Shown: in pieces, positions 1,655 to 55,425 of the stretch
How positions within the stretch are numbered: the first letter of the stretch is position 1
Layout of the letters: every line of letters starts with the position of its first letter
DNA from: Octopus vulgaris
Taxonomy: Eukaryota
Length of the DNA stretch: 64,000 nt
NCBI GenBank assembly: GCA_951406725.2
Contig: OX597839.1
Location: forward strand, 4,526,001 to 4,590,000
Reading direction: 5' to 3'
Made by a program: the position numbers and the translations under genes
The notes under the pieces: model-generated
What the model saw: only the letters and a program-made list of their open reading frames with translations
Told to the model about the DNA's origin: nothing
The model's database searches: none

Positions 1655-1744
1655 ATATATATATATTATGTGTGTGTCTGTGTGTGTATACATAAACAAA
1701 GCAGTGACACCGAAAAAACCCAGATGTTATGTAAGGAACTTCAT

Positions 1745-1800
1745 TTGCTTACAATTGTTTCTGCTATAGCAGGATAATATCTTATAGCTTCATCAGAGGC
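1745..1800 (-). ncRNA. Decayed type I hammerhead motif (Penelope-type)
   Basis: Minus strand reads CTGATGA-A-GCTATA..TATAGC-A-GAAA-CAATTG-TA, with palindromic stem III. Stem I is only partly paired. Confidence 0.45.
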
Positions 1801-1868: not shown

Positions 1869-1879
1869 TATATTCTTCC

Positions 1880-2246
1880 ACCGTCTAGGCTTAAAAAAGC
1901 CCTCAATGTTGGTTTCCTTGTCCTGTTTTTATTCTTTATGTGTACTATATTTTTATTTGTATTGCTTTTACGTCCTGTTCTTGTCACTTTTTTTCTTCTT
2001 TTACCCCTCTGCAAAAGAATTTTATTTAATTCATTTTGCAGGAAGGTCTACTTCGGCCGGATCGTGTTCTGCCCTTACCTTCGAAACACGCATTGAGTCG
2101 AACCAGGGGCAGCTGATGAAGGGGAATATTCCTTGTATTGTTTGTCTTGTACTCTGTTGTTTCGTTGTTAAAAAAAGTCCGTTTCTTTGTTTGTTTTTAT
2201 GTTTTCGTTTCTCGTTGTGTTTTACGTTTATCTGTGGTGCCCTGTA

Positions 2247-2311
<65 letters not shown>

Positions 2312-2382
2312 ATATACATATAGATGTAGGTATGTACATATATGTATGTATGCATATGTTTTATTTGTTAAATTGTTATTAT
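1880..2382 (+). mobile_element. Non-autonomous repeat carrying the permuted hammerhead motif (family P, copy 1)
   Basis: Colinear with 35845-36302 over its whole length (TTTTACCCCTC.GCAAAA, TTTTATTTAATT, GTTTTCGTTTCTC, GGTG.CCT.TAC) and flanked by (TA)n. Confidence 0.8.
2063..2124 (+). ncRNA. Putative permuted (pseudoknotted) hammerhead ribozyme
   Basis: CGTGT-T | CTGCCCTT-A-CCTTC-GAAA-CACG-14 nt-AGGGGCAG-CTGATGA-A-GGGG. Stems I (8 bp) and III (5 bp) pair in hammerhead register around an intact core. Confidence 0.7.
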
Positions 2383-2401
2383 ATATATATATATATATAT
2401 G

Positions 2402-2760
2402 TAAGTTCACCAAAATTTAGATTCATATGAATATGGTACTTAAGGTAAAGATACCAGAATTTGGTATGGTATTATCCATATAAATCAAATGTAGTGATTA
2501 TAATCAAAATAAGCAACAAGGATATCCAAGGTAGAGTAGTACAATCGTTTCATGCTACTTCATTTCATTAAGCACTGTAAGTATTACATCAGTTTTAAAA
2601 TGTCGAGAACTCGTCATCCACATATAGAATTTTAAAAATTAACTAGACAATGTTCGTTTTGATACTTATATTTGCCAACATTACAAAGAGGATAGATATA
2701 TAGACAGAGAGGTTAATTTCATCATTAAGAACATGGTAGTAGAAGGTCTTTCTCCATGGG
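2402..2760. mobile_element. Penelope-derived non-autonomous repeat family F with decayed type I hammerhead (minus strand, ~2532-2620)
   Basis: Homologous to 55096-55425 and 27857-28078. Minus strand reads ATGACGA..GAAACGATTGTA. Confidence 0.65.
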
Positions 2761-6899: not shown

Positions 6900-7316
6900 A
6901 AGGCGGCGAGCTGGCAGAAACGTTAGCACGCCGGGCGAAATGAGTAGCCGTATTTCGTCTGTTGTTACGTTCCGAGTTCAAATTCCGCCGAGGTCGACTT
7001 TGCCGTTCATCCTTTCGGGGTCGATAAACTAAGTACCAGTTACGCACTGGGGTCGATGTAATCGACTTAATCCGTTTGTCTGTCCTTGTTTGTCTCCTCT
7101 GTGTTTAGCCCCTTGTGGGTAGTAAAGAAATAGGTATTTCGTCTGCCGCTACATTCTGAGTTCAAATTCCGCCGAGGTCGACTTTTCCTTTTATCCTTTC
7201 GGGGCCGGTAAAATAAGAACCAGTTGAATACTGGGGTCGATATAATCGACTTAATCCGTTTGTCTGTCCTTGTTTGTCCCCTCTGTGTTTAGACCCTTGT
7301 GGGTAGTAAAGAAATA
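6900..7316 (+). mobile_element. SINE family C, head plus two tandem body units, 16 bp TSD
   Basis: tRNA-like head AGGCGGCGAGCTGGCAGAAACGTTAGC..GAGTTCAAATTCC. The ~185 bp body is repeated twice. TSD TATATTAACCCCAGTA lies at 6884-6899 and 7317-7332. Confidence 0.85.
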
Positions 7317-7451
7317 TATATTAACCCCAGTATTCAGCTGGTACTTATTTTGTCAGCCTAAATAGTAGTGAGTGAATTCCTGAAACATATCTTTTGAATG
7401 TTTTAACAAAATTTGCGTAGGTGTTATTCTAAACAGCAATAGAGGTAAAGT

Positions 7452-10859: not shown

Positions 10860-11820
10860 AGGCTTTAGTCTTGGGACAAGCGAAAAGCGTCAAAGGGCAC
10901 TTGACTTTCGAAATGTTGTCAATCTCTCATAACTTTCTACTTGTTAGACTCAACAGTCTGCGAAAATTCCACATTGGCGTTCGAAAGAACGCCAATGTTA
11001 TTATATGATTGTGGCAGGAGAAAGAGACTGCACTCTGCAGGTAACTCTGGGCTATTGACAAAAATCAACTGGTTAGTCTGTTCTGGAGGACTTTTCAACC
11101 GGACCCTGCAGATAACTTTCATGAATTCCTCTGCTGCATGTACAACTAGGATGATCTGCGGGGCATTATTAATTCGAAATAAAGTTTACAGGCAAACAAC
11201 TACCTATTTCTTTACTACCCACAAGGGGTTACACACAGAAGGGACAAACGAGGACAGACAAAGGGGTTAAGTCGATTACATCGACCCCAGTGCGTAACTG
11301 GTACTTAATTTATCGACGCCGAAAGGATGAACTGCAAAGTCGACCTCGGCGGAATTTGAACCCACAACGTAACGGCAGACGAAATACCTATTTCTTTATT
11401 ACCCACAAGGAGCTAAATATAGAGGGGACAACCAAGGACAGACAAACGGATTAAGTCGATTATATCGACCCCAGTGCGTAACTGGTACTTAATTTATCGA
11501 CGCCGAAAGGATGAACTGCAAAGTCGACCTCGGCGGAATTCGAACGTGAATACAAACGAAATACCGCTAAGCATTTCGCCCGGCGTGCTAACGTTTCTGC
11601 CAGCTTGCCGCCTACCATTTCCTGAGCCAGTTCATGATGCGCTCGTCCAGTCGGAGTATGGAAGACTTGTGATGCTATGCTTCCACACGTGGAGCGGATC
11701 CAGTTATTAACCGAGCTCACTGTAAAATCATCTCGCCGCCATCAACAACCTGAGAAGGGCAAACATTTTTTATATGTCTGCTTCATATGGCGAAAGAAGG
11801 TGTCTAGTGAGTAACATTGA
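10860..11820 (+). pseudogene. Old CR1/L2-like LINE reverse transcriptase remnant, interrupted by SINE C
   Basis: Fragments ISHNFLLVRLNSL (like VSH..LL.KL..LG), ALVQSEYG and VERIQ (like ALVRPHLEY..LERVQ). Confidence 0.45.
11205..11613 (-). mobile_element. SINE family C dimer
   Basis: Reverse complement of the 6900-7316 structure. Confidence 0.85.
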
Positions 11821-23924: not shown

Positions 23925-24454
23925 TATATATAAATATGTATATATGCATGTATGTATATATATATATATATATACATATGTGGCAGGGCGTGGCTTAGTA
24001 GTTAGAGGTGTTGCGCTGAGGATTGTAAGAATACGGTTTCCATTCCTCTATCGGGTAATGTGCTGTGTTCTTGGACATGTGTCTTCTATTATAACCTTGG
24101 ACAAGCCAAAGCTTTCTGGGTGGATCTAGTAGATGGAAAGCAAAAGGGCCGATAGAATAAGTACTTGGCCTACAAAGAATAAGCCGTGGGATCGATTTCT
24201 TCGACTAAAAACCATTTAAGACGGTGCTCTAGCATGGCTGTAGTCAAATGACTGAGACATGTAAAGGAAAGAAAAATATTTGTTTATTGTTTTCACTTCT
24301 TTGTAATATCGAAATAAGATATAAGTCGATTCCATCGATCCCGGGCTCAGCTGTTTTATAGGCCTCAAAATGACGACCTCAGCGGAAATTGAACTCAGGT
24401 CGTGAAGGTGGTCAAAATGTCGCTAATCATTTCACACAGCGTGCTAACGATACT

Positions 24455-24839
24455 TATTTCTTTACTACCCACAAGGGGCTAAACACAGAGAGGACAAACA
24501 AGGACAGACAAACGGATTAAGTCGATTATATCGACCCCAGTGCGTAACTGGTACTTACTTTATCGACCCCGAAAGGATGAAAGGCAAAGTCGACCTCGGC
24601 GGAATTTGAACTCAGAACGTAGTGGCAGACGAAATACCTATTTCTTTACTACCCACAAGGGGCTAAACATAGAGGGGACAAACAAGGACAGACAAACGGA
24701 TTAAGTCGATTATATCGACCCCAGTGCGTAACTGATACTTAATTTATCGACCCCGAAAGGATGAAAGGCAAAGTCGACCTCGGCGGAATTTGAACTCTGA
24801 ACGTAGCGGCAGACGAAATACTGCTAAGCATTTCGCCCG
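24455..24839 (-). mobile_element. SINE family C dimer inserted in an older family C copy, 16 bp TSD
   Basis: GCGTGCTAACGATACT at 24439-24454 and 24840-24855; the flanks are a degenerate family C head and body. Confidence 0.85.
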
Positions 24840-24959
24840 GCGTGCTAACGATACTGTCAGCTCCCCGCCTGTCAGTAGTCTCTCGCAATCCGAGGAAGGC
24901 GGTTTTGCAATTTCTTACCTGTACAAATAAATTGCGTTTAATGAATAAATGTATGTGCT

Positions 24960-27349: not shown

Positions 27350-27954
27350 ATATATATATATAAACAGATTTATATGTATAAAGACACACACTCATTACAA
27401 AGAACCATACACGTGTGTGTATGCGTATCCGTATGCGAGTTTCTTTGTTTATGCATATTTCATACATGTTTATACATGTCTGTTGGTGTATATCTATATG
27501 TATGAGCGTAGATATGAATATATATCTCCCACCTTATGTTTGTCAACCTCTGTATATATATATATACATTCAGTGAAAGCGTGTGTATTAATGGTTAGGC
27601 TAACCATTAATTTTTTCATAAATTAAATTTCCCAAACAAAATAAACCCGAAGAACATAACCCATGACAAACCATCATCGAAATATCCCCTTCTCAACCAA
27701 CAATAAACCCACTAATTACCCCTGCTAACATTACCCCTATATGACTAATAGAAGAATAAGCAATTAATCTTTTTACTCTCTCTCTCTCTCTCTCTCTCAT
27801 TCTGTATATACATATATAATACATACATGCATATACACACATATGTATATACATGTATAAGTTCAGCAACAATTTAGATTCAAATGAATATGGTACTTAA
27901 TTTAGATGCACCAGATGATTTGAAAGCTTTTATATTATTAGAAAACCTATATAA

Positions 27955-28040
27955 TTGGCTGAAGAGCACTCGGCATCTTAAATCTGCTGTAATACTTACA
28001 ACTTTTAATAAAATGTTGTAGTGCGAAACAATTGTACCAA
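27955..28040 (+). ncRNA. Type I hammerhead ribozyme with intact core and branched stem II insertion (family F copy 27857-28078)
   Basis: TTGG-CTGAAGA-GCACT..49 nt..AGTGC-GAAA-CAATTG-TA-CCAA. All three stems pair; GUA site. Confidence 0.8.
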
Positions 28041-28088
28041 ATTACCGGAGTCATTCTTGTTGCTTATTTTTGATTACATACATATATA

Positions 28089-33999: not shown

Positions 34000-34679
34000 G
34001 AGAGAGAAAGAGAGAAATAGATAGCGATAGGTAGACAGATAGATAGATAAATAGGTAGATCAGCTAAAGGATTGATTGAATCTAGATTCATCAACATGGA
34101 GGCTGGGAATGGCTGGCTTCTTATAATTGTGCTGGTAGCATCCTGTTAGTACGTATCTATACACTCAAACATCTGTAATGTATATATATATATATATATA
34201 TATATAAATATACATATGCACATATTCATATATAGGTACTCAATCCAATGTAAACCGTAGATCCAACCCAACGTTGGTCCAAGAGTAACGTATAGACACA
34301 CAAAGAAAACATGTGGAGTTCAAAATTCTTAACAGCTGTTTCGCAGCATTTTAGCGACGCACTTTTAGATTACATCAGGTGAAAAATTGACCATCATGAA
34401 GCAAATATTTAATACATGAACAGGGAACGCAAAAATAGAAGACCTGTTTATCTACTCCCCACTACGATAGTGAAGTAAACTGGTCATGTATATATATAAT
34501 GAACCGTTTTAAGTAAATCAGAGAATAAACAATATTCATTTTTTTTATTATGAAGTCATTTATGTTCCTCTGTTTTCGCCTACGTAACGTTTCCGCTGCT
34601 GTCAAGGTGCATCTTACGCATCTTTTACTGCATTATGATGCTGCAATCCATCAAGGGCTTTATCACCAGCAGTAAACAG

Positions 34680-34915
34680 CATGAAATATGAAAACAAATG
34701 AGTTGAATACGCAAACAACGGGAGAAAGAAATGGAAAACAGGACAAGTAAAATAAGGAACGACCCTTCATCAGTTGTCGGCTGTCTATCTACTCCTCATT
34801 TCGAGCATTGAACGACAATATGAGTCTTCGAAGACAGTGGTTCCCATAAGTACCAAAATAAAATTTGGGATTTATGGAGGATCAAAAGTTGGGAACAAAA
34901 ACAGGATAGTGGAGA
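34680..34915 (-). mobile_element. Diverged member of repeat family P (copy 3)
   Basis: Minus strand CTATCCTGTTTTTGTTCCCAAC..CCTCC..CAAATTTTATTT and CCTTATTTTACTTGTCCTGT align with 35930-35990 and 36092-36112. Confidence 0.6.
34762..34824 (-). ncRNA. Putative permuted hammerhead ribozyme (intact core)
   Basis: Minus strand reads CTCAT-A | TTGTCG-TTCAAT-GCTC-GAAA-TGAG-15 nt-CGACAA-CTGATGA-A-GGGT. Confidence 0.72.
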
Positions 34916-34957
34916 CATACAGAAATGCGTACATACATACATACAAACATACATATG

Positions 34958-35248: not shown

Positions 35249-35844
35249 ACACAAACATATATATATATATATAACGGGAAGGTTTACGAAAATAAACAAA
35301 AGACGAAGGCAGGTGGAGTACAAACAAACAAATGTATTAGTATGGCGCTCAGGAATAGAAATAGAACAAGTCTTTTAAGTTTCGAGCTTACGCTCTTCGA
35401 CAGAAAGATACACAGAAAAAAAAACAAGGAGAGAAATATATATATATATTCTCCAGGATGACCGCAGTCAAATGACTGAAACAATTGGAAAAATGAAAGA
35501 ATATGTATGCGTGTGCCATTCTGTCTGTCCCCTCATCAACGTTTGACAATAGGTGTTGGTGTCTTTACATCCTCGTAACCTAGTGGTTCGGCAAAAGACA
35601 CCGAGAGAATAAGTACTAGCCTTAAAATGAAGTTCAGGAGTCGATTTGCTCGACTAAAACCCTTTAAGGTGGTGCTCCAGTGGCGCTCCAGCACGGCCGC
35701 AATCAAATTACCGAAAAAGGTATAAAAGAATCAAGAATGAAGATTCATATAAATATACTCACGTACACAAATGAATATGTATAAATATTCACACACCGAT
35801 TCCTATATCGATAGCGTTCGTAAAAAAAAAAAAAAAAAATTATC

Positions 35845-36302
35845 TCGTTTGGCTTAACAGCCCTTCTTGTTTGTGTTACTATCATTCTCCGTGTCCTGTC
35901 CTTTACTGTTTATATTTTGTACTGTCGTTACTGTCCTGTTTTTGTTACCATTTTTACCCCTCCGCAAAAAAATTTCAAATTTTATTTAATTTGATTTTCA
36001 CGGGAAGGAAATTTTCATTGAAGTCATGTATCGCCTTGACCTTCGAAACGTGGAGTAGATGAACCTAAGGCGACTGAATAAGGGGAATTTTCCTTGTTTT
36101 GTATGTCCTGTACTCTATTTATTCGTTGTTTAAAAATATGTCCATTTCCTTGGTTTTGTGTTTATGTTTTCGTTTCTCATTGTGTTCGACGATTTTTTGG
36201 TGTCCTATACGCATATATATGCATGTATATATACATGTAGAGGTAGGTAGTACATATATGTATGTATATATACATATGTTTTATTTATTTATTAATTTAT
36301 TA
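35845..36302 (+). mobile_element. Repeat family P, copy 2
   Basis: Colinear with 1880-2382. Confidence 0.8.
36024..36085 (+). ncRNA. Permuted hammerhead motif with G8->U core mutation
   Basis: TCATGT-A | TCGCCTTG-A-CCTTC-GAAA-CGTGG..TAAGGCGA-CTGAATA-A-GGGG. Confidence 0.6.
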
Positions 36303-36630
36303 TATATACACACAAGCAGACACAAACACGTATGTATATAAAAATAGATCAGACAGATTACAGACGTATATATAAAAAAATGCACACAATATAAAAGATT
36401 AAAGACCTAATTTATAATTGAGTTTATATATTAAAAAAATAAAATAAAACTCAAACCATCTAGTTTTAGAACCGGATATAATAAAACTGAAATAACCAGA
36501 TGAATCGAGAGAATGTAGATATACGTATACAAATGCTAACACACAGATATAACCACACAAATACACATATATAACATATATACTTACAATTGTTACAAAT
36601 ACAAAGAAAGACACGTATGTAACACACACA

Positions 36631-43263: not shown

Positions 43264-43819
43264 ATCTCTACTTTTGGTTCTAGGTTCCCCTATCCTTCTT
43301 CCTCTCCCTCTCCTTCTCTCGCTCTCCCTCTGTCTCTTTATCCCTCATCACATTTTCCAATCTATTCTACCCCTTCCCTCCTACTCATATCATGCGATGC
43401 TCTTTCGTTCTTAGTCTCTATTACATCCCCAACTCAAACTCTTTTTACATCACCGTCAAAACAAAAAAAAACAACAAAAAACAAAAAAGGCACTGAGGCC
43501 CCTTTTACAATCCAACTCAATCCTCTGCCTACCACCACGGACCCTTTTAAAAACAAACTCCGTGGTTAGCTTCTCATGCATGTTTGCCTTGCTGCAGTCC
43601 ATTCTTTCCCACAAACCCCATCCATATTTCTCTTTCCGTCATCGCATATCCCTTCCATCTCAGAAAAAAAGAAAAACTTGTTTGCCCCACAACGCCGCCT
43701 CCCCTATTGGCAAAGGTCCATCTTATCACAACCACATCCATTTCCAACTCGAAATGTACCTTCATCATTTATTGCCTTCTAAAATATGTATAGTTACCCT
43801 TAATCAATATAATAATGGC

Positions 43820-53039: not shown

Positions 53040-53381
53040 TCGATGCCCAGTGTGAAACTGGTACTTTATTTATCAACCCCGAAAGGATGAAAGGCAAAGT
53101 TGACCTCGGCGGAATTTGAACTCAGAACGTAACGACAGGCGAAATACCTATTTCTTTACTGCCCACAGGGAGCTAAACACAGAGGGGACAAACAAGAACA
53201 GACAAACAGATTAAGTCGATTACATCGACCCCAGTGCGTAACTGGTACTTAACTTATCTTCCCTGAAAGGATGAAAGGCAAAGTCGACCTCGGCGGAATT
53301 TGAACTCAGAACGTAGCGGCAGACGAAATACCGCTAAGCATTTCGCCTGGCATGCTAACGATTCTGCCAGCTCGCCGCCTT
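53040..53381 (-). mobile_element. SINE family C, young unit followed by a more diverged partial unit
   Basis: Family C match with the junction AAAGAAATA|GGTATTTC on the minus strand. Confidence 0.85.
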
Positions 53382-55018: not shown

Positions 55019-55086
<68 letters not shown>

Positions 55087-55095
55087 ATATATATA

Positions 55096-55425
55096 TAAGT
55101 TCAGCAAAATTTAGATTCAGATGAATATGGTACTTAAGTTAAAGGCACCAGAATTTGGTATGGTATTATCCATATAAATCAAATGAGATGATTATAATCA
55201 AAATAAGCAACAAGGATATCCAAGGTAGTGTAGTACAATTGTTTCATGATACTTCATTTTATTAAACAATGTATTACATCAGTTTTAAAATGTTGAGCAA
55301 TCTTCAAGCACATATAGAATTTATTTTTTAATTTAATGGACAATGTACATTTTTATACTTATTCCATTCATGATGAAATTTAACATCTCTGTCTATATAT
55401 CTACCCTCTTTATAATATTGGCAAA
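55096..55425. mobile_element. Repeat family F copy with decayed hammerhead (minus strand, ~55229-55310)
   Basis: Colinear with 2402-2760. Confidence 0.7.

Follow-up and report, generated by a model that had tools for sequence, protein, structure and literature searches.

A candidate hammerhead of non-circular strand order in a high-copy, retrozyme-like octopus repeat, with covariation that suggests a further split of its core

A repeat of the Octopus vulgaris genome carries a hammerhead core whose three strand blocks follow a non-circular order. With a probability of roughly 0.55, we consider this repeat to be a high-copy, non-autonomous, Penelope-dependent retroposon whose predicted hammerhead belongs to the SGC/CSG/GCS class and is opened between A9 and G10.1. 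In the literature covered, it is new to find a putative ribozyme of this class carried by an animal retroposon of high copy number. In addition, covariation suggests a further split of the core block, an arrangement that is undescribed in the same literature. That the ribozyme would be an active seventh arrangement, with the block split at 9/10.1 by a four-way junction and processing the circular RNA of a retroposon with thousands of copies, has in our estimation somewhat less than even odds.

The motif in the window and in the genome

The window, that is, the whole stretch of 64,000 nucleotides analysed, contains three motifs found by a descriptor for the blocks S, G and C in that order, which is the order of type SGC: 2063-2124 (+), 36024-36085 (+) and 34762-34824 (-) (Table 1). 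The motifs named in the initial annotation were all present where it had placed them, and the recurrence of the layout that it had reported at 34762-34824 has descriptor support. At 36024-36085 the layout recurs as well, but the core is damaged (CUGAAUA, with G8 changed) and this third copy is probably inactive; otherwise the core elements CUGANGA, GAAA and UH are all present. A relaxed-core descriptor added one loose and implausible match at 43666, while a stricter S-G-C descriptor found two sites in the window with an exact core, three with one core mismatch, and none in each of 100 dinucleotide shuffles of the window. CUGANGA alone occurs at chance level (19 seen versus 17.1 expected).

In the genome (2.8 Gb searched), anchors on the G and C blocks gave 5,013 matches versus 4 in the control, and at least 3,125 complete S-G-C cores were counted versus 0 in the control. 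The stricter descriptor was passed by 7 of 30 own-genome anchor loci, many of the 30 being truncated or mutated, and, among the matches listed, by none of 117 metagenome loci with the GAAA and CUGAUGAAGGG anchors. Contigs from four runs, with four organism labels, contain related sequence. The search of the window against Rfam gave no match at gathering score, and that of a tandem copy no hammerhead at E<=5, as expected from the earlier statement that nested models miss this fold.

Table 1. Coordinates of the copies and of the proposed ribozyme strands in the window.
Feature	Position	Strand	Evidence or remark
Copy 1 of the repeat, 5'-truncated, TA-microsatellite end	1872..2384	+	86% identity over 524 nt to L098
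Strand a (partner 2120-2124)	2004..2008	+	90.5% paired cells, two-sided 1/5 pairs
Hairpin between a and b, AU-rich loop	2009..2041	+	two-sided 4/6 basal pairs; MFE
Strand b, proposed 5' strand of stem II (partner 2078-2082; G10.1 = 2042)	2042..2046	+	covariation
L1 (partner of L2)	2048..2057	+	two-sided 7/10 pairs; 74.6% paired (MAFFT alignment)
Block S, 5' part: stem III strand, U16.1 (2067), H17 (2068)	2063..2068	+	predicted cut 2068/2069
Stem I 5' strand (2069-2074) and 3-nt link (2075-2077)	2069..2077	+	stem I two-sided 5/6 pairs
Block G: b' (2078-2082), GAAA (2083-2086), stem III 3' strand (2087-2090)	2078..2090	+	motif match, covariation
L2 (partner of L1)	2097..2106	+	subfamily swaps, covariation
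Stem I 3' strand (2107-2112) and CUGAUGA core (2113-2119)	2107..2119	+	
Strand a' (bulged A and stem II strand of the initial annotation; partner 2004-2008 in the preferred model)	2120..2124	+	
Copy 2, subfamily C	34663..34926	-	87% over 266 nt to L180
Copy 3, motif 36024-36085	35832..36308	+	78% over 504 nt to L334

The non-circular strand order is upheld by the descriptor and by covarying stems I and III, but it is not the undescribed topology that it had been taken for. It was published as type SGC (HRIMA-1 and a variant), with cleavage shown and in metatranscriptomes only (Eckert et al. 2023, PMC10085705), and the suggestion that a short S-G link draws stems I and II together is in that paper already. 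Its SGC sequences are RNA-only and come from soil, spruce and sludge metatranscriptomes; octopus and mollusc terms are absent from its text and supplement. A helix between stems I and II was found to be essential, the block formed by CUGANGA and stem II was assumed to be uninterruptible, and the descriptors required exactly CUGAUGAG or CUGAUGAUG, so that they would miss CUGAUGAAG.

The octopus motif shares with type SGC the order of cleavage site, GAAA and CUGANGA, the crossing stems, a link of about 3 nt between stems I and II, and a predicted helix that connects these stems at their far sides. In the split model, a 5-bp stem II, a 1-nt spacer, the helix, stem I and a 3-nt link would also be shared with the tested SGC-1, as we interpret its oligonucleotides; the S-G link measures 3 nt in families A and B, and stem I 5-6 bp. 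In type SGC, however, stem II directly follows CUGAUGA(U), whereas here its strand apparently arrives from upstream via a four-way junction, and in place of an RNA-only sequence there is an animal genomic repeat. The literature covered, which includes few subscription papers, gave neither a non-circular hammerhead in an animal genome nor a four-way junction at 9/10.1, and we found in it no precedent for an active hammerhead with strand exchange at 9/10.1; the available parts of PMC13725137, PMC10162972 and PMC3088659 hold nothing on either subject.

Stems I and III and the choice of stem II

The first alignment was built from 107 extracted cores, of which 75 were kept and 67 aligned; truncated, inverted and canonical cores were removed by eye. 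In it, the three stems of the initial annotation are paired in 91.4% of cells (slid controls, 43-55%), with two-sided change in 10 of 17 pairs, of which stem II contributes one. Covariation across genomic copies had been set as a check of the fold, and stems I and III, which adjoin the core as in a hammerhead, do covary. Stem III is a non-palindromic helix of 4-5 bp with two-sided change in 3/5 pairs, and stem I, first given as 8 bp, is probably 6 bp long. The core itself varies mainly at N7 (U77/A10/G2/C1 in 90 copies), and position 2117 is the sole core place among the variant rows listed, 40 of 44; H17 reads U44/C34/A11/G1 in 90 copies.

The pairing of 2079-2082 with 2121-2124, originally proposed as stem II, is possible, but it is probably not the conserved one. 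In a second alignment of 49 sequences (46 of 62 listed references and three added), it is paired in 94.4% of cells (slid controls, at most 80%), with two-sided change in one of four pairs; the helix is G·U-rich, and its pairable cells include a change from C-G to G-U. Its energy within and between subfamilies (-2.4 and -2.3 kcal/mol) is no better than shuffled and not subfamily-specific, and it adds nothing to the fold energy (-7.9 versus -8.0 kcal/mol). Nested energies are -18.4 kcal/mol for strand a, the hairpin and strand b, versus -7.9 kcal/mol for the hairpin with this stem II. An unbroken block C, with a stem II strand within 1-2 nt of CUGANGA, is possible by sequence and is outcompeted in energy. 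The C11.1-G pair is kept under both models, and a stem II with G10.1-C11.1 beneath the tandem G·A pairs would have two candidate partners, the upstream one being better supported. Folded as a single sequence, the core is unremarkable (z from -0.58 to 0.76); the 161-nt region gives z = -2.70. The AAGG..CCUU hairpin 3' of the core, reported as a competitor, is indeed in all three window copies, but only in 46 of 90 full genomic copies.

Covarying helices with upstream strands

In the MFE structure of 1990-2150, 2120-2124 is paired with 2004-2008, and for this reason the upstream region was investigated. Both strands of the stem II proposed earlier have covarying Watson-Crick partners 20-65 nt upstream. 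Depending on the subfamily, b' is CCUUC, UGCUC or CGUUC, and the matching b, about 27 nt before the predicted cut, is GAAGG, GAGCA or GAACG; the partner of a' lies about 62 nt before it. These helices, like the carrier repeat and its copy number, had been overlooked by the initial annotation, which did find the motif.

To measure subfamily specificity, strands were swapped between six subfamilies (79 of 88 copies classified, at most 9 used per subfamily). Energies within versus between subfamilies were -8.0 and -4.8 kcal/mol for L1:L2, -5.4 and -3.6 for b:b', -7.7 and -6.6 for a:a', -3.4 and -2.1 for stem III, and -6.4 and -4.3 for stem I. In the 49-sequence alignment, b:b' is paired in 96.7% of cells (slid controls, 34-62%), with two-sided change in 3/5 pairs. 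RNAalifold selected a:a' (three pairs of strand a), the hairpin and b:b' unprompted, and strand a is also paired in the single-sequence MFE.

The six helices, namely a:a', b:b', L1:L2, the hairpin and stems I and III, occupy disjoint bases, and they could coexist if stem II is 2042-2046/2078-2082, with the chain opened between A9 and G10.1 and closed through a four-way junction. The model with all six is paired in 85.9% of cells (slid controls, 39-47%), with two-sided change in 23/37 pairs. This last count was equalled in 27 of 500 shuffles, and the paired fraction and the covariation score in none; since the sequences are related, these figures are not probabilities, and the covariation counts derive from some 6-7 subfamilies that are themselves related, so that cells are not independent. 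Under strict rules, the four upstream-dependent helices form in 54 of 88 copies, compared with 0.03 after upstream shuffling and 0/400 per cross-subfamily swap; under tolerant rules, in 81 of 88, compared with 6.0 after shuffling and about 40% in the swaps. No unpaired base stands at the junction between a and the hairpin and after A9 in 62 of 88 copies, and the first base of strand b is G in 83 of 88. L1:L2, a helix of 6-10 bp, is sited where the essential stem I-II helix of PMC10085705 sits: 3' of 2124, a helix joining these two stems at their far sides is not above controls, and its equivalent lies 3' of strand b.

Within the window, L1:L2 of copy 1 has two mismatches, and in copy 2 (motif 34824-34762, predicted cut 34819/34818) strand b carries substitutions against its own subfamily. 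One subfamily (L085, L087, L130, L110, L115) has UU or UA in place of the A after CUGAUGA and retains a:a' and b:b'. Two further candidates were discarded: a G-C linker helix with sequence 3' of 2124, which was no better than controls, and a pairing of GAAGG upstream with UUCCU downstream, which was not specific to subfamilies.

Based on these data, we propose that stem II would be 2042-2046/2078-2082, five Watson-Crick pairs in which b provides the strand 10.1-10.5, stacked under the G12·A9 pair; one base further on, a helix would begin whose partner adjoins stem I. CUGAUGA would not be joined to b: A9 would run into a', and b would come from the hairpin. After A9 the chain would exit via 2004-2008/2120-2124, which together with the hairpin 2009-2041 would make a four-way junction, and the rest of the RNA would consequently hang from the fourth helix. 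L1:L2 would take the role of the essential helix of PMC10085705.

The same strands could be read differently, as a plain type-SGC ribozyme in which a and b act as a conserved off-switch, covering stem II on both of its strands and leaving the precursor or circle mostly uncut. We find this unlikely, although several observations agree with it: the high proportion of pairable cells in the originally proposed stem II, including the change from C-G to G-U; the nucleotide between 9 and 10.1, which is normal in Penelope and SGC hammerheads (PMC10085705 and the available part of PMC4209133); the blocking by complementary sequence known in plant retrozymes and viroids (available part of PMC7229834); and the majority of copies that extend past the predicted cut. 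Against it, that stem II gains no fold energy and lacks subfamily specificity, the masking strands are always present upstream, and the essential helix of PMC10085705 is unsupported in the plain layout and correctly placed in the split one.

Insertion ends near the predicted cleavage site

The 5' ends were mapped for copies selected through anchors that lie 3' of the predicted cut, at a distance of 85-140 nt. In family A (90 rows, after 2 of 92 were dropped as self-inversion errors, with some inversions counted with both arms), 24 ends fall in -2..+25 (0.0144 per nt) and one in -30..-3; the wider flanks hold 6 in -125..-3 and 14 in +26..+110. The interval -2..+25 was chosen on these family A data themselves. 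The first 30 copies of family C gave a weak signal (6 versus 5; P=0.04 and 0.075), whereas 60 fresh copies of the same family gave 15 ends, compared with 2 in the neighbouring 28 nt (P=0.004) and with 9 downstream (P=0.0003). The excess spans -2 to +22, with a sharp drop at the predicted cut; of the 45 ends that make up the peak, just 6 lie within 2 nt of the cut, and the majority are 3-22 nt 3' of it. Neither the foot of stem I nor, for the strongest helices, their 3' foot (+23 to +52: 0.001-0.004 per nt) shows an excess. Between about two thirds and three quarters of the copies that reach the predicted cut extend past it. This pattern fits templates that would begin at the cut and be trimmed by a few bases during insertion, and does not in itself map the cut.

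In three loci (L003, L090, L101) an inverted arm meets the direct copy either at the predicted cut or inside stem I, as would be expected from cDNA folding back on its own end.

The lineage could also have needed a ribozyme that is now inactive or very slow in most copies, or in all of them, the pile-up of ends being then due to RT pausing or to a transcription start. Even inside one young subfamily divergence is about 5% (mean identity 0.95, 7 copies), the available part of PMC4209133 describes Penelope minimal hammerheads as slow in vitro, and the ends are spread across 25 nt. Nevertheless, we consider this improbable: pausing is at odds with the sharp drop at the cut and with the strongest helices having no excess at their 3' foot, the junctions of the snap-back inversions fall at the cut or within stem I, and the core letters are conserved across subfamilies.

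The repeat that carries the predicted ribozyme

The carrier unit is T-rich and 754-898 nt long, and its copies are 5'-truncated, inverted, head-to-tail, longer than one unit or ended by (TA)n. Head-to-tail copies were found at L061 and L316, with a tandem unit of 898 nt. Subfamily anchors 3' of the ribozyme gave 1,797 and 523 genome matches. Thirty of 92 anchored copies reach the terminal motif, where 28 stop in (TA)n and 2 go on, and six of the 92 read upstream intact across the terminal junction. Among 89 loci, 13 were flagged as having an inverted 5' arm, of which some 4 are doubtful, and the 5' flanks are microsatellite in 24 of 41. Three near-identical copies lie inside 200 kb (L317-L319), two of which (L318 and L319) share flanks and resemble a segmental duplication.

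No tRNA was found in any of five carrier loci searched, and the longest carrier frame (224 codons, L061) has no Pfam match. The unit contains no ORF with RT and GIY-YIG and thus is not an autonomous Penelope-like element. As in metazoan non-LTR retrozymes (Cervera and de la Pena 2020, PMC7229834, in its available part), it is non-coding and low-GC, with one hammerhead per unit and tandem or more-than-unit copies, and mobilisation by Penelope was proposed for those too. They have, however, type I hammerheads and units of 150-450 bp that are expressed as circles, whereas the octopus units measure 750-900 nt, occur mostly as dispersed truncated copies, carry a predicted ribozyme of non-circular order and are known from sequence. 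The 5' truncation, partial tandems, 5' inversions and microsatellite targets are those of Penelope-like elements (PMC4209133; bioRxiv 10.1101/2021.04.23.441226) and the G10.1-C11.1 conserved in their minimal hammerheads (PMC4209133) is probably present as well, as far as the available parts of these sources go. Unlike them, the carrier has no RT or endonuclease, stem III is not palindromic, the strand order is non-circular, and there is no homology to the autonomous elements sampled.

The tandem copies, and the canonical dimer-type hammerheads with palindromic stem III found in the same window and genome, would suit cleavage that takes place only in trans, or in dimers or tandems restoring the ordinary strand order, as in Penelope minimal hammerheads. 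We give this very little credence, since stem III is here non-palindromic, short (4-5 bp) and covarying, and all the strands needed lie inside 125 nt while the units are 750-900 nt apart.

Relation to Penelope-type elements

The genome has young elements with RT, C-terminal GIY-YIG and (TA)n ends. One young Penelope-type family (L191-L196, e.g. L192:1164-3506) has many near-identical copies with a (TA)n end, and consists of an upstream ORF followed by a 781-aa frame with RT, Cys-linker and GIY-YIG. A canonical minimal hammerhead was matched by pattern in 2 of 6 full RT + GIY-YIG copies, and the 3' UTRs of L192 and L193 carry a U3-A8 minimal hammerhead. At least three further Penelope-type families (L396-L415) have a C-terminal GIY-YIG and 3' ends running into (TA)n; hammerhead patterns gave no match in their 3' UTRs, which are worth checking for rewired hammerheads. 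Naiad and Chlamys elements were reported as having no hammerheads, after a search with canonical descriptors, in the available part of that report.

We examined 46 of 148 GIY-YIG matches for a partner of the carrier. Nothing beyond (TA)n is shared with seven 3' UTRs from four groups, so that homology to autonomous Penelope-type 3' UTRs was rejected, and no SGC core was found in 20 further GIY-YIG loci. Descent of the carrier from a GIY-YIG coding region read in antisense, which a 35-nt match had suggested, was no better supported than in shuffles, and a Naiad partner was discarded, the loci examined having a C-terminal domain or being fragments. A bulged base at 9/10.1 was also dropped as a sign of Penelope origin, as tested viroid-like SGCs have it too.

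The window holds other repeats. An intact-looking canonical type I hammerhead with a long stem II and a palindromic stem III (CAATTG) lies at 27951-28041 (+), inside an inverted pair (27832-28076), and its repeat family is also found at 2380-2628 (-), at 55070-55318 (-) and in L197. A second type of minimal hammerhead in canonical order (L019-like) lies at about 1740-1800 (-), head-to-head with copy 1. Furthermore, a dispersed repeat of 340-420 nt (89-92% identity, both orientations) is present at 6900-7321, 11205-11545, 24450-24870 and 53046-53381.

Returning to the split, Penelope-dependent retroposon that we prefer, more-than-unit transcripts would be cut in cis after 2068 and possibly ligated to circles; the 5' product would be held by four helices after cutting, which may favour such ligation. 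A Penelope-type RT/GIY-YIG enzyme would then prime on nicked (TA)n DNA where the RNA is TA-rich. Copies made from cut templates would end just 3' of the cut, and those made from uncut or circular templates would be longer.

Implications

With this repeat, non-circularly permuted ribozymes would shift from unassigned environmental RNAs to an animal genome, and the carrier offers thousands of natural variants and insertion footprints for study. If the split fold is active, the three-block rule for enumerating hammerhead permutations would be broken, and position 9/10.1 would be able to bear a whole junction, which may be of use in ribozyme engineering and in circular-RNA tools. It is now testable whether hammerhead censuses, including the Naiad/Chlamys report as far as its available part goes, may have missed rewired forms. 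If the split class is real, both canonical and SGC descriptors miss it, and elements reported as hammerhead-free may therefore hold rewired hammerheads.
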